From positions 1 through 64,000 of the forward strand of contig DASCPX010000037.1 in NCBI GenBank assembly GCA_036012755.1: a stretch of DNA of 64,000 nucleotides, in the 5' to 3' direction. The notes under the pieces were generated by a model. It did no database searches and was not told the DNA's origin. It saw only the letters and a list, made by a program, of their open reading frames with translations. Source of the stretch: Myxococcota bacterium (GTDB lineage: Bacteria > Myxococcota_A > UBA796 > CAJQPC01). Positions 2,346-51,963 of this stretch are shown piece after piece; position 1 is the stretch's first letter; every line of letters begins with the position of its first letter. Made by a program: the position numbers and the translations under genes.

Positions 2346-3467
2346 TCACGACCCCAGGGCGTTGCCCAACAAGCTGATCTCGTAGGTCGGCTCGTACAGC
2401 GCGTTCGACTTGATGGTCACGGTGCCCGAGTCGAGCACGCAGGTGGCGTTGGCCGTGAAGGTGATGTCGATGGTCTCGTAGCTCCACGGGGTGACGGTCT
2501 TGCTCCCGCTGAAGCCTCCCACCGAGTAGCTGCAGTCGGTCTGCATCGCTTCGTTGTCCACGCTGACGCTGTCGATCACGAGGTCCTCGTCGCCTTCGTT
2601 CCAGATCTCCACGGAGCGGGTGTCCGAGTTGCCCCAGGGCGTGATGATCACGATGAAGTCGCTGATGCTGTAGGCGTCGGTCGAGCCGGTGTCGACCGAG
2701 ATCATCGGTCCGCAGATGTCGCAGCCGTGGAAGCCCGACCCGACCACGGACAGCGCCAGCGCTGGGTCGTTCGCCGCGTCCGAGGTGATGGTCAGCGTCT
2801 CGTTGTAGGTCGTCTCGTCCGTCGGGGTGAACAGGACGGTGACGTCCTTTGTGTCGGCGACGTCGAGCACGTAGGGGAGGGTGAACTCCCTGCCCCAGTC
2901 GACGATGGTGTCGTCGCTGGAGACGAAGTCGGTGACGAGCAGGGCCTCGTCCCCCGTGTTCGTCAGGGTCAGCGCGGTGGTGTCACCCTTGTTGATGTCC
3001 ACCGCGCCGAAGTCGTGGCTCACCCAGCTCACGTCGAGGTAGCTGCCGCCCTCGATGGGGCCGGTGTCCTGAGAGGCGGCGGTGCCCACCACGTCCACGT
3101 AGACGAGCTCTGCGTCAGGGCTGTCGGTCTCCAGGGCGAGGGCGTCGCTGTAGTCGATCGCAGAGGTCGGCTCGAAGGTGAGCGTGAGGACGAGGTCCTC
3201 TCCCGCGCCGATGGTGCCGGTGACGGTGTCGATCGAGAACGCGGCGTTGCCCAGGCTCGCGCCGATGAGCTCGATGGTCGCGTCGCCGCTGTTGGTCAGC
3301 ACGAGCGTCTCGTCGCCCCAGCTGCCGGCGTCGACGTAGCCGAAGTCGATCTCCGAGGCTGACAGCGTCAGGTCCCCATACTCGACGGGCTGCTCTTGAT
3401 CGCCCGGCTGATCACCTGGCGGCGGGAGGTTGTCGAGCCCACAGGCTGACAGGACGAGAATCAACAT
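2346..3467 (-). CDS. Lipoprotein with three Ig-like (choice-of-anchor D / ASH-type) domains
   Basis: Lipobox LSAC; repeats of DFG..V....LTLTNxGDxxLxI...V.FxPT; acidic and Thr-rich. Confidence 0.75.
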   Translation of the reverse strand: MLILVLSACGLDNLPPPGDQPGDQEQPVEYGDLTLSASEIDFGYVDAGSWGDETLVLTNSGDATIELIGASLGNAAFSIDTVTGTIGAGEDLVLTLTFEPTSAIDYSDALALETDSPDAELVYVDVVGTAASQDTGPIEGGSYLDVSWVSHDFGAVDINKGDTTALTLTNTGDEALLVTDFVSSDDTIVDWGREFTLPYVLDVADTKDVTVLFTPTDETTYNETLTITSDAANDPALALSVVGSGFHGCDICGPMISVDTGSTDAYSISDFIVIITPWGNSDTRSVEIWNEGDEDLVIDSVSVDNEAMQTDCSYSVGGFSGSKTVTPWSYETIDITFTANATCVLDSGTVTIKSNALYEPTYEISLLGNALGS

Positions 3468-3546
3468 GAAGTTCCCCGGACGATTGGGACGTTCGATGCC
3501 GACTGAACCTTAGCGAACCAAGCCGCATGTCGCCAACGCCGATGCC

Positions 3547-3561
3547 GCAGGAACCGTGCCA
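3547..3561 (-). promoter_or_regulatory. sigma54-type -24/-12 promoter for the Ig-like lipoprotein gene
   Basis: TGGCACG-GTTC-CTGC on minus strand, ~80 nt upstream of the ATG at 3467. Confidence 0.6.
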
Positions 3562-3603
3562 GCGGGTGCGGAGTCGATCAGCGAAGCGCGTCGCTGCTGC
3601 AGC

Positions 3604-4335
3604 TCAGAAGGTGTACTTCAGGTACGCGGTGGCGTTGAAACCGAGATCGAAGCCGACGGCGTAGAAGACGTCCCCGTCGCCGCCCAGGCTGAAGTGGGAC
3701 AGCTTGCTGTAGTACTCGAGCGTCAGGCCTCCGAAGCCCACGGGCTTGAAGGAGTCGTGGTAGCCGGGGTCGACGCCGCCCCACTCGCCCTGTACCACCT
3801 CTGTCTGGTACCGCGCTTCGTCCATCAACAGCGGGCTGTAGAGGCCGCCGCCGCCGAGGCGCAGCCCCAGGCCGATGCGGCGGGTGGGGTACTTGGAAAA
3901 CTCGTAGTTCAGCAGGAAGCTGTAGGTCCGAAGGTCGCCCTGCACGAAGGGCGAGGGGTTGTCGGGCACTCCGTCGCCGTTGCGGTCGTTGCCCGCGCAG
4001 CCCTCGTCGGCCTGGAAGTCGTAGCCGCAGCCGTTGTGGATGCCCTGAAGGACGGCGAGCTCCCAGGCCATCGAGGTCTTCTCGCGGTCCACGAAGTCCT
4101 GGCCCAGGGCGAGGCCCACCGCGGTGCCGCCCTTCACGAAACCGCGGAACTGGCCGATGTACCCGGCGCCTCCGACGTTCGCCTTGGCGTAGACGCCCTT
4201 GTTGATCTCCTTCACGTCCGGCTTCTTCGTCGAGCGGCGGCCGCGCGTGTCCTCGACCTCGTCGGCTTCGTCCAGGTCGTCGTAGTCCTGGGCGAAGGAA
4301 GGACCGGTCGACAACAGCGACAAGAGGAGCAGCAT
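3604..4335 (-). CDS. gltH: Gliding motility outer-membrane beta-barrel protein GltH/CglE
   Basis: Signal peptide, alternating beta-strand pattern, terminal YxF; directly after gltG as in M. xanthus; start at ATG 4335 (GAGGT RBS). Confidence 0.7.
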   Translation of the reverse strand: MLLLLSLLSTGPSFAQDYDDLDEADEVEDTRGRRSTKKPDVKEINKGVYAKANVGGAGYIGQFRGFVKGGTAVGLALGQDFVDREKTSMAWELAVLQGIHNGCGYDFQADEGCAGNDRNGDGVPDNPSPFVQGDLRTYSFLLNYEFSKYPTRRIGLGLRLGGGGLYSPLLMDEARYQTEVVQGEWGGVDPGYHDSFKPVGFGGLTLEYYSKLSHFSLGGDGDVFYAVGFDLGFNATAYLKYTF

Positions 4336-4383
4336 GGGGACCTCGGGGAGACGGGGGGTTTCTAACACGACGTGAAGAGGGGC

Positions 4384-4402
4384 CGAGACACTGGGTGTCT
4401 CG
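4384..4402. repeat. Inverted repeat upstream of gltH
   Basis: CGAGACAC-TGG-GTGTCTCG. Confidence 0.6.
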
Positions 4403-4446
4403 ACCCCTGTCAACCCTTCGTCAGGCCCGGAGGGGGCCCTTGGGCA

Positions 4447-6423
4447 TCAGCTCGGGCTGAAGATGAAGGGGTAGCTGACGATGACGATGCCGCCGCCCTT
4501 GGGCTCGGGGAACTTGAAGCGCATGAAGCGACCGTTGATGCAGCTCTCGACCGCCGGGCTGCCCATCGTGGTGGCCTTCGTAGAGGCCGATGAGACGGTG
4601 CCGTCCTTGGCGATGACGAACTTCACGACGATCTTTCCGCCGAGGTTCGGGTTCTTGGTGAGTTCGCGCTGGTAGCAGTAGCGGATCTGGTTCATGTTCC
4701 GCTTGATGACGGCGTCGATGAGGCTCTTGTCCAGGGCACCGAGGATGATGGGGTCACCACCGATGCGGCCGATGCCGCCCTCGCCCTTGGCACCGAAGTT
4801 GCCTCCGCCGCTGCCGTATCCGGAGGCGCCTGAGCCGCGTCCCTTCGTGCCGAGTCCACCGAGACCTTCAGCCGTCCCACCGCCGCCGAGGCCGGAGCCG
4901 CGGGAGCCGAGGCCGCCGGAGCCGATCTGCACGCCCTTGGCGCCGATGAGGCCACCGATCCCGCCCGTGATGTCGGAGTTGAGCCCGGAGGATCCGAACA
5001 CACCGTCGAGCTCCGCACCGTCGCGCATTGCTCCGAGAACGCCTGCGTTCTCAGCGATCTCCTTGTCGATCTGACGCTTGTTCATTTCGACCTTGTTGCC
5101 CTTGGCCTTGTCCATCTTGGCGTCTTTCTTGCCGACCTTGCCCTCTTCGCGCTTTGCCTTGGCGCCTTCACCCGCGTCCGGGTTGCCGGTGGGCTTGTTC
5201 TTCTCCTTGTGCTTCTCGATCTCCGGCTGCTGGAGCAGGAGCTCGACGAAGCGATCCGGGATCTCGTTCAGCTCGTGGGCGGGCCGCGGCGGCATCGTGT
5301 AGACCCAGATGCCGGCGAGGATGCCGAGGAAGATCATGAAGGAGAGGACCCCCAAGAATGGGTAGTCCAGGTTCTCCGTGATCGCGGCGATTACGCGCCT
5401 GCCCGGGCTGACGAGCTGGGCGAAGAAGATGACGTGGCCGAGGTCCACCACCACGCGGGTGTTGGCGTCGATGTCGATCTTGTAGAGACCGTTGCCGGCG
5501 GCGCTGGCCTTTCCAGACTCGATCATCTCCTGGATCGTGTGGCGCTCTTCGCCGATGTCGACGAAGCCGCCCCAGCTGTCCTGGATGTTCATCACCCAGG
5601 TGCCGCCCTCCCAGGTGAAGAGTCCGAAGTCCTCGTGGGGGATGTTGTCGGTGGGAACGTAGAAGTCGTTCTTCCACTCCGGCTCGGCCTCCGACAGCAT
5701 GGGACCGAAGCACGGGGCGATCTTCGCGAAGGCGGGCGGGACCCAGGCGATCGGGACGCCCATGTAGCGCCAGCGGTGGCCTGTGCTGGTGCCCACGGTC
5801 ACGGGCTTGCCGCCCTTGCCGTAGTGCTTGATGTCCATGACCACGTCGCCCCAGATCTCCGCGACCTCGAGGACGGGCTGCTTGGTCCGGTCGACCCCCA
5901 GGTCGGACTGGGCGGTCCCCGAGCGCATGATGAAGGCCATCACGTCTTCTGTGGGCTCGGCGCTCTCGGGCGCGTCCTCGTCACCGGCGTCCGCCTCGGC
6001 CTCGTCCTTCGACTTCAGCGCGAAGAAGGACGCACCGGTGGCGTCGGTGACCTCTGTGGAGGCCTCTTCGCCCTCCGGCGGGCGGACCATCTGGGTGGCC
6101 TCCTCGTCGGAGAAGTCGTTGGCCGCGAAGCCGACGGAGATGCGGATGTCGCCGATCTCGATCGTGTCGCCATCGGACAGGGTCGCGTTGACGACCTGTT
6201 CGCCGTTGACCTTGGTTCCCTCGCCGACGAGGTCGAGGAGCTGGACGGTGCCGTCCTCGTTCAGGTTGACGACGGCCTGCAGGTCCTGGAGGGCCTCGTC
6301 CTCGACGCGAAGCATCGCGGCGGGGCCCTTGCCGATGGTGATGCTCTCGGCGGAGAGATCCTCGCGGAAGAGGAAGACGTTGCCGCGGTAGACCTCGAAG
6401 GTCAGGACAGGGGTGTCCGACAT
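4447..6423 (-). CDS. gltG: Gliding motility protein GltG (FHA, TM helix, Gly-rich linker, TonB-C/AgmX-PglI domain)
   Basis: N-terminal FHA-like domain, TM helix, AKREEGKVGK, Gly-rich linker, IRYCYQRELTKNPNLGGK...VSYPFIF. Confidence 0.9.
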   Translation of the reverse strand: MSDTPVLTFEVYRGNVFLFREDLSAESITIGKGPAAMLRVEDEALQDLQAVVNLNEDGTVQLLDLVGEGTKVNGEQVVNATLSDGDTIEIGDIRISVGFAANDFSDEEATQMVRPPEGEEASTEVTDATGASFFALKSKDEAEADAGDEDAPESAEPTEDVMAFIMRSGTAQSDLGVDRTKQPVLEVAEIWGDVVMDIKHYGKGGKPVTVGTSTGHRWRYMGVPIAWVPPAFAKIAPCFGPMLSEAEPEWKNDFYVPTDNIPHEDFGLFTWEGGTWVMNIQDSWGGFVDIGEERHTIQEMIESGKASAAGNGLYKIDIDANTRVVVDLGHVIFFAQLVSPGRRVIAAITENLDYPFLGVLSFMIFLGILAGIWVYTMPPRPAHELNEIPDRFVELLLQQPEIEKHKEKNKPTGNPDAGEGAKAKREEGKVGKKDAKMDKAKGNKVEMNKRQIDKEIAENAGVLGAMRDGAELDGVFGSSGLNSDITGGIGGLIGAKGVQIGSGGLGSRGSGLGGGGTAEGLGGLGTKGRGSGASGYGSGGGNFGAKGEGGIGRIGGDPIILGALDKSLIDAVIKRNMNQIRYCYQRELTKNPNLGGKIVVKFVIAKDGTVSSASTKATTMGSPAVESCINGRFMRFKFPEPKGGGIVIVSYPFIFSPS

Positions 6424-6489
6424 GGATTCCCTCGGTCGCGCCCGGTCGGACGCGTGCGGTGGGTGAGAAAAAGGGAGAGAGAGTTCGGG

Positions 6490-6753
6490 CTACTTGACCA
6501 GGTTCACCGACTCGTCCATCTCCTCGTTGAAATCGGTCCGGAGCTTGATGAGCGGGTTGAAGTTCGCCCGCTTCCGGTCGAGGAGGAGTGCACCCTGCGG
6601 CTTCACGAGCTCACCTGCGACCTCGACGCCCTCGAAGTCGATCTCGGTCCGCTTCTTGTAGACGATCCTGGCTTCTTCGTCCTGCGCCATCGCGGGCGCA
6701 GCAAAAGCGGTGAACGCGACGGACAGCGCCAACGTGTAGCGGATGAGCTTCAT
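6490..6753 (-). CDS. gltF: Gliding motility protein GltF/CglF
   Basis: Signal peptide plus VYKKRTEIDFE...GELVKPQG...FNPLIKLRTDF; lies between gltE and gltG. Confidence 0.88.
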   Translation of the reverse strand: MKLIRYTLALSVAFTAFAAPAMAQDEEARIVYKKRTEIDFEGVEVAGELVKPQGALLLDRKRANFNPLIKLRTDFNEEMDESVNLVK

Positions 6754-7021
6754 GGAGTCCTCGGTGTGCGGTCTGGCTGGTCACTATGGCGATGGTGTTT
6801 CGCGCGAGAGGAGCTTTACACCCCTTTGGCCGAAGATTGTGCGCCAGATCGAGCTCGGCCGTTGTCAGCGTACGGTCAATCCGCCCTGGAGGCGGGTTTT
6901 CGGCCGATCAGGGCGGGTGATGCAGACGCATGCAAGCCTCCGGGAGCTGCCGGTGTCGACATGCTCCGGAGGCCTGGGTTCCCGCTCAGATGTCAAGACC
7001 GCGTCGTCGCGATCGCCCGGT

Positions 7022-8632
7022 CTACTCGGGAGCGGGCTCTTCCGCGGGCGCCTCGGCAGGGGCGTCGTCTGCCGGTGCCTCTTCGCCGCCAGCCTCTGGA
7101 GCCTCGTCACCGCCTTCCTCGGGAGCGGGGGCGTCGCCCTCTGGAGCCGTCCCGTCCGGTTCGACGGCGCCGCCCTCTGGGGTGGGCTCGGGAGCGGGCG
7201 CTTCCGCGCACATCGGGATGAAGTCGTCGAGCATGGGCTCGTAGGACTCCAGGAAGGTGATCATGTCACCGGCCAATTGGAAGTCCTCTGCGTCGACCAC
7301 CATCTGGCCCTGCTCTGCGATCATCGCGAAGTCCTCGAGCATGCCCATCTCGGCCACCGCCGGGCAGTTCGCCTGGTCGAGCTTCTTGTTGAACGAGGCC
7401 ACGCGCCCCTTGAGCTCCTCGAGCTGGGCCTTCTGGCGCTTCTCACGCTCCTCGGCTTCGATACGCTTGCGCTCGGCCTCGGCGACGCGTTCCTGCTCCA
7501 GCCGCTCCGACTCGGCGATGCGATCGATGCGAGCGAAGACGTCGTGGTTGGGGCCGATGCTGCCCTGGTTCAGATCGACATAGGCCTGCAGCACCTTCTT
7601 GGCCTTCTTGAAGTCCTTCGTGTACTTCTCGTGGAGCGTCGAGGCGTTGAAGTAGGCGACCTCGTTGCTCGGGTCCATCTCCAGGATGCGGTCGTAGGTC
7701 GCGCTCGCCTGGTCGAACTGCTTCAGGCCGCGCTGGGCCACGGCGAGACCGAGCAGGCCATCGACGTTCTCCGGCGCCGCCGTCTGGACCTGGGAGAAGC
7801 AGTCATGGGCTTGCTGGTAGTCGCCGCTGTCGAGCGCCACGTAGCCGAGGTTCAGGTTGGCCTCGACGTTGTCCGGATCGATCTTGATCGCGGTCTTGAA
7901 GGCGTCGATCGCCGCCGGCAGGTCCTCCTGCTGGAGGTAGGTGACGCCCATGTTGTTGTAGATGCCGGGGTCGCCGTCCTGCAGCGTCTTGGCTTTCTCC
8001 GCGCAGAGCTGGCTCATGCCGTACTCGCCCTTGGCGAAGTAGGTCCGCGACAGGTTCCGGTACGCGGCGACGTTGTCCGGCTTCTTCTGCAGGATCTTCT
8101 GGGCCTCTGTGATCGCCTCGTCGTAGCTGCCAGACAGCGTCAGCGTGTTGACCAGGCTGTTGTGCATGTCCAGGTCGTCTGGCTTGGCGGAGAGGTAGCT
8201 GCGGTAGATCTCGATGGCCTCGGCGTGCCGCTCCGCCGATGCGAGGGCGTTGGCGAGGTTCGTCAGGGCCGCGGTGTAGCCGCTGTCGGCCTCCAGGGCC
8301 TTGCGGTAGTGGCGCTCGGCCCGGTCGGGCTGACCGAGGCGCTCCGACGCCCAGCCGGCGTTGAACTCCGCTCGGGCTCCGCCGCCGAGGGCGATCGCCT
8401 TGTCGAAGTCGTCGTACGCCGCCTGGTAGTCGACGATGCCGGTCTTGGAGTCCGGCGTCTTCATCGTGGTGACGCCGCGGTCGAAGAAGTAGGCCGGGTC
8501 AGTGATGGTGGACTCGTCCACTTCCGGGGTCTTGTCAGGACCGCAAGCGGTCGTGGCGAATCCCACGGACAGCGCGAGACCCAACAAGAGGAAGGAGCGC
8601 AGTCCGGTACGCGCGGATGGCAGATTGGTCAT
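7022..8632 (-). CDS. gltE: TPR lipoprotein GltE/AglT
   Basis: Lipobox TTAC, multiple TPRs, coiled coil, Pro/Ala/Glu tail; synteny. Confidence 0.8.
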   Translation of the reverse strand: MTNLPSARTGLRSFLLLGLALSVGFATTACGPDKTPEVDESTITDPAYFFDRGVTTMKTPDSKTGIVDYQAAYDDFDKAIALGGGARAEFNAGWASERLGQPDRAERHYRKALEADSGYTAALTNLANALASAERHAEAIEIYRSYLSAKPDDLDMHNSLVNTLTLSGSYDEAITEAQKILQKKPDNVAAYRNLSRTYFAKGEYGMSQLCAEKAKTLQDGDPGIYNNMGVTYLQQEDLPAAIDAFKTAIKIDPDNVEANLNLGYVALDSGDYQQAHDCFSQVQTAAPENVDGLLGLAVAQRGLKQFDQASATYDRILEMDPSNEVAYFNASTLHEKYTKDFKKAKKVLQAYVDLNQGSIGPNHDVFARIDRIAESERLEQERVAEAERKRIEAEEREKRQKAQLEELKGRVASFNKKLDQANCPAVAEMGMLEDFAMIAEQGQMVVDAEDFQLAGDMITFLESYEPMLDDFIPMCAEAPAPEPTPEGGAVEPDGTAPEGDAPAPEEGGDEAPEAGGEEAPADDAPAEAPAEEPAPE

Positions 8633-8650
8633 GATTCCGTTCCTTGGCGC

Positions 8651-11600
8651 CTAGAGGTTCTCTTCGAAGCTGGCGGTGGTCGTCGATGCCGAGGTGTATG
8701 TGGGCTCCAGCACCGTCTCCTCGAGACCCGGGAAGTCGTCGGGACGGAGCTCGCCGAGGCGTCGCGTGGCGAAGGCCAGCTGGTCGTTGTAGAGGTTGAG
8801 GTCGTAGGACTTGTCCAGCGCGGCCTGGTAGGCGGCGACGGCCTTTTCTGTCTGTGGGAAGACCTTGTCCTCGAGGTTCATCCTGTAGAACTCGATCTGG
8901 TCCTCTGTCAGGTAGGACGGGATGTGTGAGTTCTCCAGGCTCTCGCCCATGTTCTCGTAGGCTCGCCCGAGCTGCACCAGCGATGCCAGGCCCCACTCGC
9001 CGGCTCCGGTGTTGATGATCTCGGAGTAGGTGGCCTCGACCTCCTGGAGGGACTTGGCCTTGGCGACCAGGTTGTCGCCGAGGACCTTGTCCTCCTTCTT
9101 GCGGCTGACCTTGCCCGTCGGGCCGTCGATGCCCCGGGTCACGTAGGCGTCGTAGGTGTCCTGGGCCTGCTTGAACATGATCTCGGCGGCGAACTCGACG
9201 CCGAGGGTCATCTCTGCGCCCTCTTCCTTGGCCGTGACGAACCACTCGACGGTCTCGACGTAGTGCTTCTCGGCCTTCGAGCGCTGCCCGATCTCCTCCA
9301 GGCACAGGCCGTAGTGGAGCCGCGCGAACATGAGCTGGTCGGCGGTCACACCCTCCGGGTCCTTCTTGTTGAAGAAGGTCAGGTACACCTTCGCTGCCTG
9401 GTCGTACTTCTTGTTCTCCTCGTAGATCTTCGCGACCTCGAGGGTGATGTCCTGGATGTTGTCCTTGTCCGGGTAGGCGGCCATGTAGAGCTTGTAGTTC
9501 TTGATGGCGGCTTCCCAATCACCCATCGCCTTGCGGAACAGGGCGGCGGAGAAGATCGAGTCCGCAGCGTTGACGTGCTCCTTGTCGAGGCTGAAGAGCT
9601 TCTCGTACCAGCCGGCGGCCTCCTGGAAGTTGGCCATCGACTCGTAGTCGTAGGCCAGCGAGGCGACCTGGTCGTTGAAGAACTTGGACTTGGGGAAGTT
9701 CTCGATGAGCACGATGCGGTTCTGCATCGCCTTGCCGCGCTGGTCGGTGTTGTGGAAGTAGACCGTCGCGTTGTTCAGCGCGAGGTCCGCGACATCCGAG
9801 GAGGGGAACTCCGCGTAGAACGCGACGTACTGGTCAGCGGCCCAGCCCTCGTCCTTCTTCTCTGCGAAGGTGACCTCGATGAGCTTGAAGGAGGCCCGCT
9901 CGTAGATGCTGTAGACCTCCTTCTTGAAGGCCTTGTTGCCCAGGCTGTCCTGGTCGTAGAAGGCCTTGGAGACCTCCTTGAGGTTCTGCCAGTCCTCGAC
10001 GAGGGTGAAGGAGTCGAGGATCAGGTTCGCCGCCAGCATCGCCTCCTTCGAGCCCGGGTCCATGCCGATGACGACGCGGAAGCGGTCCGAGGCCTCCTTG
10101 AACTGGTTCTTGTTGTAGAGGAGGTAGGCCGACTTGTAGATGATGTTCTTGGTCTTCTTGCTGTCCGGGAAGAGCTTGGAGTACTGGTCGAGCGCGTCGA
10201 GCTCCTTGCGTTCCCACTCGGACATCTGGATGGGGTCGGTCTTGTTGCCCTTGCCCGCCGTCAGGATCTTGCCTTCCTTCTTCTCCCTCTTGACCATCTC
10301 CTCGGCGGCGAAGATCGCCGACTCGGCGCAGAACTCCGAGTGCTTGCCCTTGAGATCGAGGCTCACGACCTTCATGTACTGGACGTAGGCCTCGTCGTAC
10401 CTCTTGATCTTGTAGAGCAGCTCTCCGAAGGCGTAGCGCATCTCGTAGCTGTGCTTGGAGTCCGGGAACTCCTGGAGGTAGACGCTGTAGGCCTTGTACG
10501 CGAGCGCGTAGGTCTCCTTGGCTGACTTGCCGGTGCCGAGCTTCTTGGCCTCTGTGTGGTAGTTGATGGCCACCGTCCGGAGGTTGCGCTCGATGTAGTT
10601 CTGGGCGTCCTGGACCGCGTCCTGGTCGGAGGCGTTGGTCCGGGCCCAGGCGCTGTTCTTTCCGTAGGTCTTCAGCAGGCGGTCGATCTCGGTGAGGGTC
10701 TCCTTCTTGCGGCCGATCTTCGTGTAGGCCTGGATGATCTCGTTCTGGTACTCGGGGGCGTCCGGGCTGTTGGGGTCCTCTGCGATGAGGCGCCGGTAGG
10801 TCTGGATGCACTGCTCGAACTTGCCCTGCTCGAAGTAGGTCGAGGCGAGTCGCTTGAGCATGGCCCGGATGAGGTCCTTCTTGCCTAGCTTGTTGAAGTA
10901 GGCGTAGGCCTCGTCCATCTCGCCGGCGTCGGCGAAGAAGCGGACGAGGTCCTTGAGCGCCTCGTCCTGGAGCTGGATGTGGCCCTTCTTGCTCGCTCCC
11001 TGCTGCTGGGCGGCCATGGAGTAGGCGACGACCGACTTCATCGTGTCGATGGCCTTTCCGTATTCCCCGACGTTGTAGTAGCACCAAGCCAGCTTGTAGA
11101 GCGCGAAGCTGTACTTGGGGCTGTCGCGGTAGGCGGAGGCCTTCTGGTAGGCCAACAGGGCCTTGTAGGCGTTGTTGTTGTCGAAGTAGTACTCGCCGAT
11201 CTGGACGTAGGCGTCCGCGACGTAGCCGCTCTCCGGGTAGGTCTTCACCAGGCGGGTGAACTCCTTGAGGGCATCCTTGCGCTGGCCCGTGTCCTGCAAC
11301 GCGGAGGCCAGGTAGAAGGTGGCTTCGTCGGCCCGAGCGAAGGTCGGGTAGTTCTGGAGGATCTGGCGGTAGAGCTTGATGCTCTTGTCCTGCCACTTCT
11401 TCGACTCGACGTTGTCCGGCGACATCGTCTTGCTGTCGCACTTCGGGTCGTTGAAGCAGGCGTCGAACTTCTTCTCGTAGGCCTGCATCTCCGAGAGGTA
11501 GTGGTCGCGGCCTTCCTGGAAGTAGAGGTCCGCGAGGCGGAGCATCATCTCGGCCTTCTGCTCCCCTTGCATGGTGCCGCGGGACAGCAGCTCCTTGGCG

Positions 11601-11806
11601 AAGTCCATCTCCTCGTGGCGCTTCTGGCGCGCCATCTGGCGGTACTCCTCCGAGAGGTTGGCGAGATCGTCGACGTCGTCGGCCTTGAGGACCCGTCGCT
11701 CTTCCTTCTGCTCCCGGTCCTGGGCGTAGGCGTCGCCAGAGAACAGAGCGCCCGCCGAAAAAGCGAGGGCGAGGGGAACGGCCAGGATGCGGAGGCTGCT
11801 GGTCAT
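8651..11806 (-). CDS. gltD: Large TPR protein GltD/AgmU
   Basis: Signal peptide, ~1050 aa of TPRs (YKLAWCYYN, EALKDLVRFF, AANLILDS); synteny. Confidence 0.88.
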   Translation of the reverse strand: MTSSLRILAVPLALAFSAGALFSGDAYAQDREQKEERRVLKADDVDDLANLSEEYRQMARQKRHEEMDFAKELLSRGTMQGEQKAEMMLRLADLYFQEGRDHYLSEMQAYEKKFDACFNDPKCDSKTMSPDNVESKKWQDKSIKLYRQILQNYPTFARADEATFYLASALQDTGQRKDALKEFTRLVKTYPESGYVADAYVQIGEYYFDNNNAYKALLAYQKASAYRDSPKYSFALYKLAWCYYNVGEYGKAIDTMKSVVAYSMAAQQQGASKKGHIQLQDEALKDLVRFFADAGEMDEAYAYFNKLGKKDLIRAMLKRLASTYFEQGKFEQCIQTYRRLIAEDPNSPDAPEYQNEIIQAYTKIGRKKETLTEIDRLLKTYGKNSAWARTNASDQDAVQDAQNYIERNLRTVAINYHTEAKKLGTGKSAKETYALAYKAYSVYLQEFPDSKHSYEMRYAFGELLYKIKRYDEAYVQYMKVVSLDLKGKHSEFCAESAIFAAEEMVKREKKEGKILTAGKGNKTDPIQMSEWERKELDALDQYSKLFPDSKKTKNIIYKSAYLLYNKNQFKEASDRFRVVIGMDPGSKEAMLAANLILDSFTLVEDWQNLKEVSKAFYDQDSLGNKAFKKEVYSIYERASFKLIEVTFAEKKDEGWAADQYVAFYAEFPSSDVADLALNNATVYFHNTDQRGKAMQNRIVLIENFPKSKFFNDQVASLAYDYESMANFQEAAGWYEKLFSLDKEHVNAADSIFSAALFRKAMGDWEAAIKNYKLYMAAYPDKDNIQDITLEVAKIYEENKKYDQAAKVYLTFFNKKDPEGVTADQLMFARLHYGLCLEEIGQRSKAEKHYVETVEWFVTAKEEGAEMTLGVEFAAEIMFKQAQDTYDAYVTRGIDGPTGKVSRKKEDKVLGDNLVAKAKSLQEVEATYSEIINTGAGEWGLASLVQLGRAYENMGESLENSHIPSYLTEDQIEFYRMNLEDKVFPQTEKAVAAYQAALDKSYDLNLYNDQLAFATRRLGELRPDDFPGLEETVLEPTYTSASTTTASFEENL

Positions 11807-11890
11807 CGTTGTCCTTCCGTCAGCAAAGGCCGCACGCGTGTGCGTGGGGCCTTCGTGAAGTGGTCCCGGTTGGTGCTGCCCGGGAGGTTC

Positions 11891-11955
11891 GTCCCCCTCA
11901 GGGGGGGCCGAGGGGGGTGAAGCCGTCCCCCCTCAGGGGGGACCGAGGGGGGTGA
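11891..11955. repeat. Two tandem ~30-bp GC-rich palindromic units between gltC and gltD
   Basis: GTCCCCCTCAGGGGGGGCCGAGGGGGGTGA then GTCCCCCCTCAGGGGGGACCGAGGGGGGTGA, separated by AGCC. Confidence 0.8.
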
Positions 11956-11968
11956 GAAAAAGAGCGTG

Positions 11969-13843: not shown

Positions 13844-13849
13844 GGTCGC

Positions 13850-15586: not shown

Positions 15587-15790
15587 CAGGGACTTCTCCA
15601 GCGTTTCGAGCATGCACTTCGGGCAAGGGGGCACCCGAGAGCCGAGGGAAGATAGCACGCACTTCCTACTCGGGCTCAGACCGCCTGTCATGCACTTGTC
15701 AAGCGCTTTTGCGGGCCTCTCGGCGCACTGCGACATGGGGTTCTCGGGCGGCACCGCCCCCCTCTGTGTCGCGGCCCCCGGAACCCTTCG

Positions 15791-29624: not shown

Positions 29625-29645
29625 CGGGGCAGTATGGTCGAGCCG

Positions 29646-31031: not shown

Positions 31032-32134
<1,103 letters not shown>

Positions 32135-32138
<4 letters not shown>

Positions 32139-39077: not shown

Positions 39078-39087
<10 letters not shown>
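37969..39087 (+). CDS. Linalool dehydratase/isomerase-like secreted (alpha/alpha)6-barrel protein
   Basis: ESYPDEGWLFCHSMALAAL, EGSS, REWP, DVDSGP motifs recalled for LinD-like homologs. Confidence 0.55.
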
Positions 39088-41549
<2,462 letters not shown>

Positions 41550-41590
41550 GAGACCTCCGAGGCAGAGAGTGTCCCATTAGGCTTGGGTCT

Positions 41591-42058
41591 GTGATCTGGC
41601 TTCTTCTCGCCTGCGAGTACACCCCCGAAGAACTCTGCGCGGGCAAGGGCCCGGAGTCCCTCGATCTCGGCGGTGGAGAGAGCGACTCCTTCGAGCCCTA
41701 TGTCGAGGGCGACGAGGCCGAGATCATGGTCCCACCCCAGGGGGGCTACGGCCTGACCTTCCGGGCCCGCACGCTGGGGCTCGTCACGAACAACGTCGTC
41801 GATCTCGACATGGAGACGGAGCACGACGGCGAGGTGATCGGGCAGTTCGCCGCCGAGGGCTGGTACGTCTACTGCCAGGAGGAGGGTCACGGCCTGTTGT
41901 GGGGGACGGCGACCCCGATCGACGAGGCCCTCTTCCCGAGCGGGGACGACCTAGCGGTGCTCGACGGCGAGACCGCCGTGATGCGCGTGACGGCGACGGA
42001 CGTCGATGGTGACACGGCGACCGGCGAGGCCACGGTCACGATGTGGCTCAGGGACTGA
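41591..42058 (+). CDS. Hypothetical lipoprotein
   Basis: MIWLLLAC; PPQGGYG motif; acidic and beta-rich. Confidence 0.7.
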   Translation: MIWLLLACEYTPEELCAGKGPESLDLGGGESDSFEPYVEGDEAEIMVPPQGGYGLTFRARTLGLVTNNVVDLDMETEHDGEVIGQFAAEGWYVYCQEEGHGLLWGTATPIDEALFPSGDDLAVLDGETAVMRVTATDVDGDTATGEATVTMWLRD

Positions 42059-42594: not shown

Positions 42595-43395
42595 ATGCTC
42601 TTCGCTCCACTGTTGGCCGCGGTCTCGCCTGCCTGCGCACCCAAGCAGCTGGGCCGGGCCTCCGGGCCCGAACGACACTACGAGATCGAGGTCTTCGCCG
42701 AGTTCGACACCACGGGCGAGGGCATCGATCTGAGTGGCTACGAGCACCAGCAGGTGCATCTCAGGGGGCACCTCCTGCTGGTCACCACCCGGGCCTTTCG
42801 AGACGGCTCCGAGGGAGACATGCTCCGCTTCGAGAGCCTCGAACATGCGCCCAGCGCCGAAGGACCGTGGGTGCGCTCGGAGCTCTCCGGCATGTCTGTA
42901 GAGCTCAGGGTCTTCGACACGGGCGAGATCCTCGCGGTCCGGGACGCGGAGCACCTCGCGGGGGCCCCCCGCCACGGCGAGGTCTTCGACGTCCTCCTCC
43001 CCGCGCTGTCCCCGGTCGTCCCGGCGGTGAGACCCGGGGACGAGTCCTGGAGGAGGACCTCCTGGCCCTTCGAGGTGGGCTACCAGCGCGGCTGGCGGAA
43101 CAACCTCACGGCGCTCTGGAAGAACGAGGGCATCGAGGACGTCGAGCTCGGACGGAGCGCCCACCTGAGCTACGCCGGCCAGCTCGAGGGCGAGGGCTCC
43201 GACGCTCGCATGGAGGCCGAGGTGACCATCGGCGGCGAGGTCGCCGGAGAGGTCTGGATGAGGACCTCGGATGCCCGATTGGTGAGGCACGAGCTCGACT
43301 GGACGCGCACCGTCCACGCTAGCTACTCCAGCGGTGTCGAGCTGGAGCAGGCCCAGCACTTCGTCGTCTCCGCCAGGCTCGTGGAGGTCCCATGA
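42595..43395 (+). CDS. Hypothetical lipoprotein (beta-rich)
   Basis: Hydrophobic leader ending SPA-C; coding-like codon pattern; coupled to the next gene. Confidence 0.65.
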   Translation: MLFAPLLAAVSPACAPKQLGRASGPERHYEIEVFAEFDTTGEGIDLSGYEHQQVHLRGHLLLVTTRAFRDGSEGDMLRFESLEHAPSAEGPWVRSELSGMSVELRVFDTGEILAVRDAEHLAGAPRHGEVFDVLLPALSPVVPAVRPGDESWRRTSWPFEVGYQRGWRNNLTALWKNEGIEDVELGRSAHLSYAGQLEGEGSDARMEAEVTIGGEVAGEVWMRTSDARLVRHELDWTRTVHASYSSGVELEQAQHFVVSARLVEVP

Positions 43396-43865
43396 TGTGG
43401 CTGAGCGTCGCCTTCGCGGCTCCACCTGCCGACGACGACGCCCCGACCGGCCGGTACCTGAGTCCGGTCGAGATCCATGGTCTGGTGATCGAGCAGCTCG
43501 AGGTCCTTGGCAGCTGCTACGAGCACTCGGCCGAGGCCCGCGCCCGGACGGAGCTCGGCGATGTCTACCTCACATGGGTCATTCGTCCTGACGGCAGCGT
43601 GACCGACGCGCGCATCCACGAGTCCAGCAGCGGGCTCCCGGAGCTCGACGCCTGCCTCCTCGAGGCGGCCGGACGGCTCCACTTTCGCGCTCACGACGAG
43701 CCGGGGATCGACGTCGGCTACCCGATGGTCTGGCTGGACGCGACGCTCCAGCCTTTTCCGATGGTCTACGTGAAGGAGCGTCCCCTGGATCTGCTCTTCT
43801 TCTACCTGCCCGAGGAGCCGGTGTACGTAGACATCCTGAAGCCCAGGCCGGACCCGGAACGGTGA
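43392..43865 (+). CDS. Secreted stand-alone AgmX/PglI-type (TonB-C-like) domain protein
   Basis: CYE...GDVYLTWVIRPDGSVTDA...LDACL...F...VGYP, same pattern as the GltG C-terminus. Confidence 0.7.
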   Translation: MMWLSVAFAAPPADDDAPTGRYLSPVEIHGLVIEQLEVLGSCYEHSAEARARTELGDVYLTWVIRPDGSVTDARIHESSSGLPELDACLLEAAGRLHFRAHDEPGIDVGYPMVWLDATLQPFPMVYVKERPLDLLFFYLPEEPVYVDILKPRPDPER

Positions 43866-47048: not shown

Positions 47049-47567
47049 ATGAGGCTCTATCGCACCAAGATCCCGGCGATTGCCAACTCGGTCATCGAGT
47101 CGCTCGACGCCAATGGCAGCATCGAGGTCTTGTCCGAGAACAAGGGCGAGGCGGAGAAGGACCTGATCTCCATCATGGAGGAGTACCTTCGTCGCGACTA
47201 CCAGCTGCGGGACAACGTGAAGGAGTCGATGGCCGCGGGCGGGATCTCCTACGACCAGTACGGCAAGTTCCGGTCGCGGCTCGCGGAAGAGTGGAACCAC
47301 CCGACCGGAGAAGCGGTCGCAAAGTACCTGGCCCGCCAGTTCATCGAGAACTTCATGATCAGCAACTTCGTCGAAGAGGTCTACGCAGAGGACGGCATCC
47401 TCTGGCGCCGCACCCTCGATCTGATCCGCGCCCACGATGTCGACGAGAACGCGCTGCGCGAAGAGGCCAAGGCCGCAATCAAGAACATCTCCGAGGGCAC
47501 GGTCGACTACGAGATCGCGCTCCAGCGCTCCATCCGTGACGTGAAGAAGCGGAGGGGGCTCATCTGA
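47049..47567 (+). CDS. DUF507-like protein
   Basis: AGGAGG RBS; MRLY... start, EEVYAED, EGTVDYEI...KKRRGL end. Confidence 0.75.
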   Translation: MRLYRTKIPAIANSVIESLDANGSIEVLSENKGEAEKDLISIMEEYLRRDYQLRDNVKESMAAGGISYDQYGKFRSRLAEEWNHPTGEAVAKYLARQFIENFMISNFVEEVYAEDGILWRRTLDLIRAHDVDENALREEAKAAIKNISEGTVDYEIALQRSIRDVKKRRGLI

Positions 47568-48217
47568 GCTGGTTGTTGTTGCTGGCGTGTCCGGGCGAGC
47601 CGGACGCGGAGTCCGTTACTCAGCCGCCCACGAGACAAGAGGCCCTCGCGGCGCTCGAAGTCCAGCCCGCCCCTGCGCCGATCGAGGCCCCGGAGGCTCC
47701 TGAGGAGCTGGTTCCGGTCGAGATCACCTGGGACGGCATCGGCCCGCTGCACAAGGGCTACTTTCAGGACCGCGAGGCGATGACGCAGCTGTCGGGGGAC
47801 CTCGCGCCCTGGCTCTCCGAGACCGTGCAGCTCCACATCCGGTACGACTCGGAGGAGTTCATCGGCGACATCGTCATCCGCATCCCGCCGGGAGAGCTCA
47901 GGACCCTGCCCGCCGTGGAGGGGGGGCGCGTCGAGCTGGCGACGCTGGCGCCGCTGACCACGGCGCTGGGCACCTATCGGGACGCTCTCGCCGCGCGCTT
48001 CGACCTGCGCATCGCCAGCTTCCGCATCGGGCTCGAGACCTACCGGGGGCCGACGCACTGTCGCTTCGGCGCAGCGGGAACCCACCCTCCAGACGGTACG
48101 GTCGTCTCCCCCTGTGTGCTGATCAACGGGATCGAGCACTGCGGTCTCCCCGAAGCTGGCGGCGTGCGGTTCGATACGACGCCCGCCGACCAGCTCGAGG
48201 TGTGCCTGGGGGAGTGA
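47564..48217 (+). CDS. Hypothetical lipoprotein
   Basis: WLLLLAC lipobox; start CTG 47564 or TTG 47573. Confidence 0.65.
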   Translation: MSWLLLLACPGEPDAESVTQPPTRQEALAALEVQPAPAPIEAPEAPEELVPVEITWDGIGPLHKGYFQDREAMTQLSGDLAPWLSETVQLHIRYDSEEFIGDIVIRIPPGELRTLPAVEGGRVELATLAPLTTALGTYRDALAARFDLRIASFRIGLETYRGPTHCRFGAAGTHPPDGTVVSPCVLINGIEHCGLPEAGGVRFDTTPADQLEVCLGE

Positions 48218-48996: not shown

Positions 48997-49011
48997 GCAA
49001 GGCCCGTGCCA
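48997..49011 (-). promoter_or_regulatory. sigma54 -24/-12 promoter of the fliA-like gene
   Basis: TGGCACG-GGCC-TTGC, a full consensus match, 40 nt upstream of an ATG with GAGGAGG RBS. Confidence 0.8.
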
Positions 49012-49075
49012 GGGGGGTTATGTCAGCAAGTTCAAGTAGTTAGCCGGAATTTGAGCTCCGAAGGTGAGTCAAAAC

Positions 49076-50203
49076 TCATCCCCCGATCGGTTGGGGGGTG
49101 TCGGCGTATCCGGTTTGCGCCACGACCTTCTCCATGCCCATGGGCGTCTCGCCGTTTCCGGCCATTCGGAGGCGCTCGTGGAGCTGCGTGATGGCGACGT
49201 TCCGGTTCATCTCCTTGCCCTCGAGGCCCCAGAGGACGAAGGAGGCGTAGAGCAGCTCCGGCTGGTAGGGGTACCACTGGAACTTGCTCCCGTAGAAGGA
49301 CGTGAAGCGCCAGCGCTCGGACTGATCCCGGTCCCAGACCTCGATGACCGGCGGGCTGACTTCGGTCATGACCCACTCGGGTTGCTTGGCCAGCCACTCC
49401 TCCATGCGACGCAGCTCGCGCTCCCTGGCGTCCTCTGAGAGCTCGTTCCAGCTGCGCTGATCGAAGGGCGAGATGGGCTCGCCCAGCTTCTCCAGCGCCA
49501 CGTAGCGCCCAGCCGGGTGGATCGAGCCGCGCGTAGCGTCAGGGAAGGTCTCGAGCAGGCCCCCATCGGCCGTGAAGGTCCGCACCGTGTCGCCCTCGCC
49601 GACGGCGAGCTGCTGCATCGCGGGCTCGTAGGTGAAGGTGTCCGCCGAGGTCACGAACGGGAAGATCGGAGCGACGGTCATCTCGGTGAAGTTCGCGACG
49701 AAGATCCGGCGCGCGCCCTCGGACTCCGCTGTGAAGTAGACGCTGTCGGCCGATCCCGTCGGCATCAGGTCCCGAGGGTCCTCCACATCCAGCTCGAGCT
49801 CGATGACGGACGCCTGCATGCGGTCGAAGCGGAGCATGCGCTGCTTCGTCCCACCCTTCGGCGGTGCGATGGGGAAGACGAGGTATTCCCTGGCCATCCA
49901 GGCGGCGTCGCCCACCGGGACCTCTGTGGGCACCGTGCCGATGGTCTTGTCGACGCCGTTGAGGATGTGGGCGCTCATCGGTAGCTGGAAGTAGAGCTGC
50001 ACGCCGTCGGGGGCCCAGCGGTAGTGGACGAAGTTGTTCGATCCGCAGGGCTCGAAGGCGGTCTGGATGTTGTGCTTGCCGGCCAGGAAACGCAGCTCGG
50101 TGTCGCGGCAGTCTTCGTAGGCGTTGTAGACGTTTTCGCTGAACGTGCTGGTCTGGTAGAGGTCGTCGCGGTCACAGCCAGCGAGCGTCAAGAGCAGGAA
50201 CAT
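49076..50203 (-). CDS. Hypothetical lipoprotein, probable TolB-like beta-propeller
   Basis: MFLLLTLAGC; WAPDGVQLYF and IHPAGRYVAL blade-like motifs. Confidence 0.65.
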   Translation of the reverse strand: MFLLLTLAGCDRDDLYQTSTFSENVYNAYEDCRDTELRFLAGKHNIQTAFEPCGSNNFVHYRWAPDGVQLYFQLPMSAHILNGVDKTIGTVPTEVPVGDAAWMAREYLVFPIAPPKGGTKQRMLRFDRMQASVIELELDVEDPRDLMPTGSADSVYFTAESEGARRIFVANFTEMTVAPIFPFVTSADTFTYEPAMQQLAVGEGDTVRTFTADGGLLETFPDATRGSIHPAGRYVALEKLGEPISPFDQRSWNELSEDARERELRRMEEWLAKQPEWVMTEVSPPVIEVWDRDQSERWRFTSFYGSKFQWYPYQPELLYASFVLWGLEGKEMNRNVAITQLHERLRMAGNGETPMGMEKVVAQTGYADTPQPIGG

Positions 50204-51963
50204 GTCGTTCGTCTCCGTGCGAGCAAGGCACCTATCGCGATCGCGAGGAGGGATGAGTGCGTGGCCGGGACCGAGCAGCCCGTGCGGGGCTCCGCTTCGA
50301 CGGCGGCGGCACGATCGCCGGTGTCGACCGCCTCCCGGTGCGTGTCGAAGACGAGCTCGCCGAAGACGTCTGCGATTCCGACCTCCACGCCCTTGGACAC
50401 GACGAGGATGTCCACGGTTCCGTCAGCGGGAAGTGAAGACAGCCCGAGCCTGAGCTCCGTCGCGGTCTCGTCGAGCACGTCGATCTCCGCCAGGGCGCGG
50501 TCATCGCCGTAGAGCGCGAAGGCGCGGGTACCGGCCGCGAAGGCGCCGCCGAGGACCAGGTCGTCGGCGAGCTCGGCGTCGTCGATGCGCACGGGCAGGC
50601 GGGCGTCCGTGACGAGCACCCCCCGCTTCTTGACTCCCGTGTCGGCGAGGACGTCCCATGCGCCCACGGCGAGCTCGGAGGGGTCGATCCTCCAGGATCC
50701 ATCTCGCTGATCGAGCAGGACGTCATCATGCCCGGGGCGGGTCAGGACCACCTCGGTCGCGTCCAGCGCCAGGCTCGAGTCCTCCTCCAGGACGCTGACG
50801 AGGAGGGTGTCGATCGACAGTCGCGCGGTGGCTGCGAGCCAGCCGTCGTCGGAGGTGCCGGGCTCGTAGCCGACGGCCTCGACCGTGAAGGGGCCGGCGT
50901 ATCGATGCGCCCAGGTGCCGTCGATCGGGCTCGACCAGAAGGGGCTGGTGCCCTCCGCGCTCAGGCGGGCGGAGACCGGGCGTCCGGTCTCGGCGTCGAG
51001 GACGATCCCCTCGCTGCCGAGCTCTGCTGTGACGAAGGCCTCGACCGCGGCCAGGTGGGCCTCGACGACTGACGTGGGGTCGGCCGGTGATTTTTCCACG
51101 CTCAGCTCGACGGTGTACTCCCACGCTCCGTGGCGGGCCAGGGACCAGTCGTTGCTGTCGCCGTAGGTGACGTACCAGTCGGCGCCGTTGACCAGGCTGA
51201 AGTCCTCGACCACGCAGGCGGCGGCGTAGACGGCGCCGAGGAGGATCAGCTCATCCTCTTCGGGGGCCGGGTCCCTCGTGTGGTTCCAGGGGTAGCCGAT
51301 GTTCAGGGCGCCGGAGTGGAGGCTCAAGCCCATCACCGGCGGGTGGAAGCTCGCCAGCGTGCGGATCGACAGGGTCTCGGGCTCCGAGAAGGGCTCCGGT
51401 CCGGAGAACACGCTGTCGGCCCAGGCCTGGTCGTAGTTCCGGTTGAGGTCGACCTCGTTGGCGTTCTGACGCGAGCCAGCGGCGTAGCCGTCCGGGTTGA
51501 CGATCGGTACGATCCAGAGCGACCGGCCTGGCACCTCCAAGCTCCGCGCGAGCTCCATGGCCAGCGCAACACCGGCGGTCTCGTCGCCGTGGTGGCCGCC
51601 CAGGATGCGGACACGTGGACCCGCACCCCGCTGCAGCGCGAGGATGTCCCGACCCTCCACCGACTCGCCGATGGCGACGGCCCCGAGGGCTCTGAGCTCC
51701 GCCTCGAGCGAATCCAGTGTCGGCTCGCCGTCCCGCGCCGTCCTGCGGTGGTCCTCGCGGCGACTCCGTGTCTCGAACTCGGCCTCGAGCGCATCCAGCG
51801 CTTCAGCGCGGCCCTGGACGAGGATCCAGTCGCCGTCGATGCCCTCCGCGAAGGCGGCGCCTCGGTCGTCGAGGTCGTCGGGGCTCGCGTACCGGACCTC
51901 CAGCTCACCGATCGGTTCGCCGATGGGCTCGGCGACGGCCTTCGCGAGCAGCAGGCACCACAC
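50188..51963 (-). CDS. M14 zinc carboxypeptidase with MYXO-CTERM-like tail
   Basis: HGDE, NPDG, VDLNRNY, EPET, SLH, TVEL; tail GC + hydrophobic + RRR; GTG start 51963. Confidence 0.85.
   Translation of the reverse strand: MWCLLLAKAVAEPIGEPIGELEVRYASPDDLDDRGAAFAEGIDGDWILVQGRAEALDALEAEFETRSRREDHRRTARDGEPTLDSLEAELRALGAVAIGESVEGRDILALQRGAGPRVRILGGHHGDETAGVALAMELARSLEVPGRSLWIVPIVNPDGYAAGSRQNANEVDLNRNYDQAWADSVFSGPEPFSEPETLSIRTLASFHPPVMGLSLHSGALNIGYPWNHTRDPAPEEDELILLGAVYAAACVVEDFSLVNGADWYVTYGDSNDWSLARHGAWEYTVELSVEKSPADPTSVVEAHLAAVEAFVTAELGSEGIVLDAETGRPVSARLSAEGTSPFWSSPIDGTWAHRYAGPFTVEAVGYEPGTSDDGWLAATARLSIDTLLVSVLEEDSSLALDATEVVLTRPGHDDVLLDQRDGSWRIDPSELAVGAWDVLADTGVKKRGVLVTDARLPVRIDDAELADDLVLGGAFAAGTRAFALYGDDRALAEIDVLDETATELRLGLSSLPADGTVDILVVSKGVEVGIADVFGELVFDTHREAVDTGDRAAAVEAEPRTGCSVPATHSSLLAIAIGALLARRRTTCSCS

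Follow-up and report, generated by a model that had tools for sequence, protein, structure and literature searches.

A tripartite signal with a basic n-region is the textbook rule for protein export and underlies the tools that predict it. A 64,000-nucleotide stretch of a Myxococcota genome (contig DASCPX010000037.1, positions 1 to 64,000; hereafter the window) raises the question of how closely this rule is kept, as an initial annotation had noted about 15 predicted exported proteins that begin directly with a short hydrophobic run ahead of a lipobox Cys or an A-x-A site, and had suggested a lineage-specific export code or a separate targeting route. Here we find that short uncharged export signals are real and genome-wide in the source genome of the window (G000; 6.7 Mb, 96% complete). 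Judged by their sequences, they are by working and descent signals of the Sec pathway for signal peptidase II (SPase II) and signal peptidase I (SPase I), in a minimal variant.

Genes of G000 were called with a home-made dicodon model (5926 genes, 93% coding), and a short lipoprotein signal was defined as a start, 5–11 charge-free residues and (A/G/S)-Cys. In the full census 921 of the 5926 called genes fitted this rule, with lengths of 5 (8 genes), 6 (154), 7 (284), 8 (199), 9 (142), 10 (77) and 11 (57) residues. The corresponding census of short SPase I-type signals, for which A-x-A formed part of the rule, found 213 where approximately 21 were expected. Plotted across the genome, as had been proposed with the initial annotation, signal lengths thus have a mode of 7 for the lipoprotein type (n=921) and of 11 for the SPase I type (n=213). 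To settle starts without reference to the signal, we took the 1343 genes that begin in overlap with the stop codon of a called gene ahead of them. Within this coupled set a lipobox Cys follows after 6, 7 and 8 residues in 57, 60 and 43 genes, respectively, and after 5–11 residues in 195 (only five of them with Lys or Arg), compared with about 30 after 12–40 residues; SPase I-type signals number 46 without a basic residue versus 11 with Lys or Arg. The same lipobox rule applied at 63041 internal start codons gave a flat background of 9–31 Cys matches per position, and from this null rate it is likely that a few dozen of the 921 calls are false positives. Forty-one of the 921 can also be read as conventional signals; with these removed, 880 short signals coexist in G000 with 114 conventional lipoproteins that carry ordinary long signals.

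The initial annotation had named upstream true starts with a basic n-region as the finding that would overturn its reading; for most of these genes this is not so, and the short starts appear genuine. In 467 of the 921 genes the stretch from the upstream stop to the short start is free of in-frame ATG, GTG and TTG, and a further 145 have no alternative start within 35 residues of the Cys. Per codon, the coding score averages −0.36 upstream of the start, where 13% are positive, and +0.34 beyond the Cys, where 95% are (n=555). In the 590 short-signal genes that lie away from an upstream stop, Shine-Dalgarno (SD) motifs are most frequent from −11 to −8, and a TANNNT box stands at −13/−12 in 113, as against none in a shifted control; a reference set has similar spacing, with TANNNT at −13/−12 in 208 of 1830 genes. 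This spacing points to leaderless messages, which would hold no upstream codons. Leaderless-type −10 boxes were found for 151 of 880 short-signal genes, and 64 of these 151 start with GTG. An n-region contributed by the upstream gene, through fusion or frameshift, was rejected as well, because 590 of the 921 genes have no upstream stop close by and, of 880, 151 look to be leaderless. In the window, the gene that starts at 51963 is the sole case in which an upstream ATG restores a basic n-region.

Several lines of evidence indicate that the short-signal proteins are almost certainly exported. BLAST searches with E. coli proteins revealed basic-free signals in G000 on BamA (13 residues), SurA (13 residues), a BamD-like protein (14 residues) and a CpoB-like lipoprotein (8 residues); TonB-dependent receptors carry them too, and TolB and one Pal retain conventional signals. 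For BamA and SurA the alignment to E. coli begins right after the A-x-A site, placing small residues at −3 and −1 ahead of an extracytoplasmic mature protein, as expected for SPase I. Counted after the Cys at +1, 71% of the 785 short lipoproteins and 67% of the 99 conventional ones have an even number of Cys residues; an even number is also found in 56% of the short SPase I-type proteins (n=142) and in 47% of all others (n=4004). This excess suggests, indirectly, that the mature parts are disulfide-bonded and that the first Cys is unpaired and modified. Finally, 15% of the 213 short SPase I-type proteins end in Phe or Trp, compared with 5%. On these grounds we strongly infer both export and lipidation.

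Orthologues connect the short signals with ordinary ones. Among the listed loci of an orthologue series (27 loci from the surroundings of the gliding-type cluster in relatives), the signal of the lipoprotein that starts at 16618 spans 7 residues in G000, G097 and G134, 8–10 in G085, G071, G069, G133, G056, G117 and G094, and 12–20, mostly with Lys or Arg, in G143, G050, G022, G111, G004, G018, G084, G101 and G038. Graded series were also obtained for 3467 and 19242, and in the 16618 and 3467 series the Cys of the short lipoproteins is homologous to the lipidated-type Cys of conventional orthologues. Homolog alignment, suggested earlier as a check for conserved starts, bore out the Cys site and not a constant start, given lengths of 7–20 residues across the 16618 orthologues. 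BamA signals are basic-free and 13–19 residues long in ten genomes of the order to which G000 belongs (hereafter the order), contain Lys or Arg in seven, and contain Lys or Arg in the five class outgroups with a readable start, several rows being at contig ends or unreadable. An internal start codon that would yield a short signal is present in 41 of the 114 conventional signals. Because orthologues run from 20-residue basic signals to 7-residue ones, the short signals are best read as eroded Sec signals rather than a new code. A new export code or separate route is not borne out, as ordinary signals of orthologues are the homologues of the short ones, 114 ordinary signals coexist with them in G000, the signal recognition particle (SRP) is kept, and Lgt and LepB copy numbers do not differ inside and outside the order.

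The usual minimum for the h-region of a signal is about seven hydrophobic residues. Signals of 6–11 residues in G000 hold 3.7–5.0 large hydrophobic residues, those of the short lipoproteins have no h-region long enough for a membrane helix, and a positively charged n-region is absent from both short types. They are Leu-rich and charge-free, and with no Arg among them there is no twin-arginine motif; the DctP protein at 31032 retains a long RR-bearing signal. Summed hydrophobicity on an octanol scale, for signals filtered to hold at least three large hydrophobic residues, is about −5 and nearly constant for lengths 6–9. Trp occupies position 2 in 36 and position 3 in 85 of the 921 signals, against a background of 2.2%, so that the frequent Trp described earlier at these positions is an enrichment and not a dominant feature; it occurs in 33% of 6-mers versus 9–17% of longer short signals. 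Leu stands at −3 of the lipobox in 566 of 921 and at −2 in 551 of 921, and in the coupled genes A, G or S at −1 accounts for the whole Cys excess at positions 7–9. Early mature parts are acidic, at about −3 per 20 residues. This charge is equal behind short and long signals (p=0.48), so the acidic mature part does not compensate case by case, and the idea that a mature start of greater acidity makes up for the missing charge was rejected. Conventional signals are commoner in genes with ribosomal-like codon use, making up 23% of lipoproteins in the top tenth of codon bias and 8% in the lowest quarter (p=0.0009).

The available portion of PMC9360617 describes the Sec/SPase II lipoprotein signal as an n-h-c layout with a positive n-region and a lipobox that reads Leu-Ala/Ser-Gly/Ala-Cys, and by this definition the short signals are not canonical. 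They resemble that type in their hydrophobic run into (A/G/S)-Cys, with the Cys placed as in conventional orthologues, and in the presence of Lgt, LspA, Lnt and LolA in G000. They differ in lacking a basic n-region, in having 6–9 residues ahead of the Cys and in a −2 residue that is mostly Leu, versus Ala or Ser in that source. Likewise, the SPase I-type signals share with the n-h-c type an h-region and A-x-A site, on BamA, SurA and TonB-dependent receptors, together with a LepB that has its catalytic Ser and Lys, and differ in their mode of 11 residues, the absence of an n-region and a c-region reduced to A-x-A.

We followed the distribution of the trait with the nucleotide pattern ATG-(NTN)5-GCN-TGY, which covers one length class only; 41 of its 42 matches in G000 lie at gene starts. 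Counts range from 0 to 103 in 122 other genomes of the order, with 42–90 in genera g1 and g6 and 1–103 in all 26 genomes of family f6, compared with 0–2 in 28 genomes from other orders of the class and 0–4 in 163 genomes from other classes. The trait is thus confined to one order, in line with its suspected lineage specificity. Two order genomes with a count of 0 (G143 and G055) still hold some basic-free signals, and none were found in 16–50 kb sampled from each of two class outgroups. On a quick LG+G4 tree of SecY, SecA and Ffh from 32 genomes, with high-count groups set by pattern count, the high-count lineages need at least three changes, and their union in one clade is rejected (approximately unbiased test, p-AU 0.0014, without G091). 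The trait became extreme at least twice independently within the order.

G000 encodes single copies of SecA, SecY, SecD, SecF, YajC, YidC, Ffh, FtsY and Lnt, two deformylases, SecG, two LolA, two LspA, five Lgt and three S26-family genes, together with the 4.5S SRP RNA (RF00169); SecB was not found in this 96% complete genome, and relatives were not compared for it. Catalytic residues are kept in both LspA, in one LepB and in the four of five Lgt that were aligned, and Lnt is encoded. Some Lgt paralogues are divergent. A tandem lspA-lspA-lgt-lgt array lies at C59:99967-102600, where the C-terminal motif of the second lgt appears divergent. Of the small S26-family genes, that at C228:11573-12124 is without the catalytic Ser and has Arg in place of Lys, and that at C27:109488-110057, which follows lepA, keeps both residues. 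YajC of G000 (C27:86880-87227) starts with about ten uncharged residues ending in A-x-A ahead of its membrane helix, and E. coli yajC has a similar short start, though with an Asp (locus L017:1288-1620); such a mini-signal might be common on this N-out membrane protein, and convenient to study in E. coli. Expansion of Lgt was rejected as a cause of the trait (2–6 copies in 28 order genomes versus 2–7 in 14 others), as were expansion of LepB/S26 (1–6 matches inside the order and 1–4 outside, overlapping ranges) and loss of SRP (the Ffh M domain is present in 31 of 32 genomes). The Ffh finger loop is two residues longer in the order than in the rest of the class, and equals the E. coli length.

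Of the adapted SecA, SRP, Lgt, LspA or LepB that the initial annotation had envisaged, copy numbers of Lgt and LepB and the retention of SRP thus give no sign, and what stood up are order-specific changes in SecA, and in SecY, at or beside signal-suppressor sites. In E. coli numbering, SecY 187 holds Ala or Ser in all 27 order sequences, against Ile in each of the 15 other class members and Ile or Met in each of the 16 other members of the phylum; F192 is mostly Thr in the order. SecA 372 is Tyr or Phe in 28 of 28 order sequences, Leu or Val in 18 of 18 other class members and Leu or Met in 13 of 14 other phylum members, and position 304 is mostly Met in the order; we take I304 and L372 to line the signal groove. 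A nucleotide pattern for the SecY site matched 75 in 110 order genomes, a figure that is not a substitution count, since the pattern misses Ser AGY and N-to-Q and gave at least two off-target rows. In family f6 (L131, L136, L137, L141-L143, L145 and L146) SecY F286 is Ala or Ile, and T404-S405 is often T-G; F286 cross-links weakly to translocating chains (PMC2171872, available portion).

The same portion of PMC2171872 counts I187 as fourth in the isoleucine ring of SecY and places prlA alleles at G69, I191, I278, S282 and I408, neighboring ring residues included; the pore ring in general is treated in PMC8082313 and PMC8612361, as far as their available parts go. In the SecA stem, A373V, A373I and A373F give Prl phenotypes, and L372 is not mentioned in the portion of the main text available for that study (bioRxiv 2021.08.31.458331). 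Our search of the literature on SecA L372 and I304 returned no match. The order resembles E. coli prlA and prlD strains in having changes in the isoleucine ring (I187A/S) and the SecA stem (L372Y, adjoining A373). Those strains export precursors with defective signals, and by analogy the order's translocase may do likewise. Unlike them, its changes are natural and fixed order-wide, and fall on a ring member and a neighbor of a Prl site, not on reported alleles; at the classic prl positions checked in SecY (64-69, 191, 274, 278, 407 and 408) the order does not differ from other class members. By this analogy the substitutions only weakly qualify as a cause of tolerance for short signals. Changes in SecY, SecA or Ffh convergent among the extreme clades yielded weak candidates only (SecY 123, 240 and 376 among them), several being the outgroup state. 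Loss of acidic residues from the SecA signal groove, at positions we presume to be the relevant ones, was uninformative, as the stretch corresponding to E. coli 289-294 is missing in outgroups too.

The explanation we favor, at slightly better than even confidence, is ordinary Sec export with processing by Lgt/LspA and LepB, through a translocase with a lowered trigger. A shift of the start codon into the h-region would have removed the basic n-region and part of the h-region, leaving Met, four or five strongly hydrophobic residues and a cleavage motif, a lipobox for Lgt and LspA at about 7 residues or an A-x-A for LepB at about 11. These signals would pass through the single SecA-SecYEG machine, made easier to trigger, as in E. 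coli prl mutants, by a smaller SecY ring residue (I187A/S) and a bulkier SecA stem residue (L372Y, beside A373). With the bar lowered, selection would keep only a minimum summed hydrophobicity; several sub-lineages may have drifted to that floor, with strongly expressed proteins more often keeping full signals. Seven residues measure about 10 angstroms as a helix and about 23 when extended, so a 7-residue signal cannot span the bilayer as a helix and would instead lie in the lateral gate or in the bilayer's outer half. Spanning may not be needed, because the LspA catalytic dyad lies within the membrane (PMC9360617, available portion), and the 4-residue offset between the two modes fits two cutting depths. 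In E. coli, SRP binding prevents deformylation (PMC5454389, available portion), and an N-terminus that kept its formyl group would be neutral when buried. A bolder form, which we put forward tentatively and hold to be doubtful, is that the whole order runs a natural prl-like translocase (I187A/S plus L372Y) that takes 6–7-residue signals without an n-region, each formylated, never membrane-spanning, and lipidated and cut in the lateral gate or outer leaflet.

Partly compatible with the lowered-trigger translocase is a co-translational SRP route, in which SRP binds the short, strongly hydrophobic N-terminus and keeps it formylated, the neutral fMet signal sinks into the bilayer with no anchor on the cytoplasmic side, bringing the Cys or A-x-A to Lgt, LspA and LepB, and the SecY and SecA changes are incidental. 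Retention of Ffh and 4.5S RNA, the longer finger loop, Leu-rich charge-free signals, the block on deformylation and the intramembrane LspA dyad all speak for it; still, we think it unlikely, as the longer loop merely equals the E. coli length and four to five hydrophobic residues fall short of typical SRP substrates, which exceed that number. That no adaptation is involved, and that standard Sec, Lgt, LspA and LepB accept any signal hydrophobic enough with an acidic mature part, the signals having drifted under coupled and leaderless translation in an acidic envelope proteome, would suit the otherwise ordinary machinery, the repeated origin of the trait, the acidic early mature parts and the easy mutational path through internal ATG, GTG or TTG codons. 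It sits badly with the near absence of the pattern from other orders and classes, where some genomes are as large as G000, and with mature charge being the same behind short and long signals, and we consider it quite improbable. An unrecognized targeting factor, or a specialized Lgt, LspA or LepB paralogue serving the short signals, might be sought among the several Lgt, LspA and S26-family genes, some of the Lgt divergent; the overlapping copy ranges inside and outside the order, the lack of a second SecA or SecY in G000 and the continuous series from long to short signals make it very improbable. An artefact, with true starts upstream (through non-standard codons or fusion to the upstream gene) or N-termini that are not signals, is the least credible reading and can hardly be correct, given the genes without upstream starts, the leaderless-type boxes, the negative upstream coding score, the even-Cys excess, Cys and A-x-A sites that align with conventional orthologues, and the need for BamA and TonB-dependent receptors to cross the inner membrane.

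Several observations nevertheless weigh against the lowered-trigger translocase or the calls beneath it. An alternative start within 35 residues of the Cys exists in 309 of the 921 genes, the gene caller overlooked at least two real genes (27299 and the second lgt on contig C59), and the support for export and lipidation is drawn from sequence. Within the window, 47564 is ambiguous and 51963 is the weakest case, because it has a Lys in its c-region and an ATG at 51987, 8 codons upstream, would give a 19-residue signal with Arg. The partly available papers on the pore ring and stem do not name I187 or L372 substitutions as prl alleles. Among 79 outgroup sequences SecY 187 is Ile in 54, Thr in 19, Ser in 2, Val in 2, Ala in 1 and Gln in 1; the four outgroup genomes with Ser, Ala or Gln have 0 pattern matches, and the I187 change was accordingly rejected as a sufficient cause. 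As I187S/A also occurs in alphaproteobacteria without the trait, the link is suggestive only. Order-specific columns (6 of 214 in SecY, 5 of 365 in SecA and 11 of 226 in Ffh, the last with a smaller outgroup and another cut-off) are no commoner in SecY or SecA than in Ffh, and the chance that one of six ring positions falls among the 6 of 214 is about 16%, with sites picked post hoc. The substitutions do not explain the gradient, because order members with few short signals share them, and no convincing change in SecY, SecA or Ffh tracks the extreme clades in the 32-genome set.

In the window itself, all 14 N-termini listed in the initial annotation translate as written, six on the forward strand (27299, 29646, 32135, 41591, 43392 and 47564) and eight on the reverse; their starts need correction at 29624, 41591 and 51963, which are GTG, and at 47564, which is CTG. 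Each kind of start support claimed for them was recovered: stop/start overlaps at 16618, 19242, 27299, 32135 and 43392, and also at 47564; SD motifs at 41549 and 50203, and also at 4335; and TANNNT 13 bases ahead of 29646, 41591 and 51963. The CTG at 47564 is a probable start; it shares a CTGA with the stop of the gene before it and has a good SD motif. Two further basic-free signals, at 22174 (reverse) and 42595 (forward), extend the list (Table). Pfam revealed clear envelope-type domains in 9 of 16 short-signal window proteins scanned, a faint match in one and none in the rest; the domains seen include TonB receptor plug, TonB_C, Ig-like, subtilase, M14, LamG, MopE and DUF4215.

Table. Short-signal genes and associated features of the window (aa, amino acids in the signal).
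Feature	Coordinates	Strand	Start and remarks
Lipoprotein, Ig-like domains, MLILVLSA-C (8 aa)	2346..3467	-	No other start before in-frame stop 15 codons upstream; signal of 7-16 aa in orthologues
Exported protein by gliding-type cluster, basic-free SPase I-type signal (15 aa)	3604..4335	-	SD-like GAGGT; farther in-frame GTG/TTG exist
Gliding-motility-type cluster, TPR/FHA/outer membrane protein barrel	4447..15613	-	Exported members keep long basic signals (internal control)
Lipoprotein of Myxococcota family, MLPLMLA-C (7 aa)	15791..16618	-	Overlaps upstream TGA; orthologues 7-20 aa, Cys kept
TonB-dependent receptor, TonB_C and plug (11 aa)	16618..19242	-	Overlaps upstream TGA
Exported protein, basic-free signal (10 aa)	21227..22174	-	GTG; ATG 6 codons upstream likewise basic-free
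Lipoprotein (9 aa)	27299..27988	+	Overlaps upstream TGA
Subtilase, S8 (10 aa)	27918..29624	-	GTG; no upstream in-frame start
TANNNT box	29633..29638	+	13 bases ahead of 29646, leaderless-type spacing
Lipoprotein, DUF4215 and TSP3 repeats (7 aa)	29646..31004	+	ATG 4 codons upstream adds no basic residue
Metallophosphoesterase and LamG (10 aa)	32135..33910	+	ATGA overlap with upstream stop
MopE-repeat protein (10 aa)	39078..41549	-	No other start before in-frame stop 10 codons upstream; SD GGAGG
TAGGCT box	41578..41583	+	13 bases ahead of GTG at 41591
Lipoprotein (7 aa)	41591..42058	+	GTG; no ATG/GTG/TTG between upstream stop and start
Lipoprotein, basic-free signal (13 aa)	42595..43395	+	Stop 4 codons upstream
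TonB_C-domain protein (9 aa)	43392..43865	+	ATGA overlap
Lipoprotein (8 aa)	47564..48217	+	CTG overlapping upstream TGA; alternative TTG at 47573 gives 5 aa
Lipoprotein (9 aa)	49076..50203	-	No upstream in-frame start; SD GGAG
M14 carboxypeptidase (11 aa, one Lys in c-region)	50188..51963	-	GTG; TAGGCT at 51976-51971 favours short start

The long basic signals that the initial annotation had ascribed to GltA-F are indeed present at 6490-15613; the Glt names for the cluster are our presumption, Pfam giving only TPR, FHA and outer membrane protein barrel matches there. Relatives of the lipoprotein at 15791..16618 come most commonly from Myxococcota (Atlas), and its gene is coupled to that of the TonB-dependent receptor in most order genomes examined. 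At its N-terminus the receptor bears a TonB_C domain of its own, and its gene comes after TonB/ExbD/ExbB-like genes. Directly behind the gliding-type cluster lies a gene at 1470-2288 that, from its N-terminus, we take to encode a ribosomal protein L3-like product, apart from the ribosomal cluster on contig C80.

The literature searched, a collection poor in subscription papers, held no description of this trait, and the available part of a secretome study of 1000 sludge genomes that includes Myxococcota does not mention it (PMC11495043). About one in seven G000 genes encodes a lipoprotein whose 5–11-residue signal is uncharged, and the habit extends to BamA and other core envelope proteins, so the envelope proteome of the order is probably under-predicted. 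The order also offers a natural gradient, in which one and the same protein has signals of 20 down to 7 residues and the minimum was reached independently at least twice. This gradient opens the smallest signal for SecYEG, Lgt and LspA, and the role of the n-region, to experiment; the two single substitutions, SecY I187A/S and SecA L372Y, could be tried in E. coli. Should the order indeed run a prl-like translocase, the lower limit for a bacterial signal peptide would be reset, the cytoplasmic positive anchor of the loop model would be dispensable, and a natural signal-tolerant translocon would be available for transfer to E. coli.

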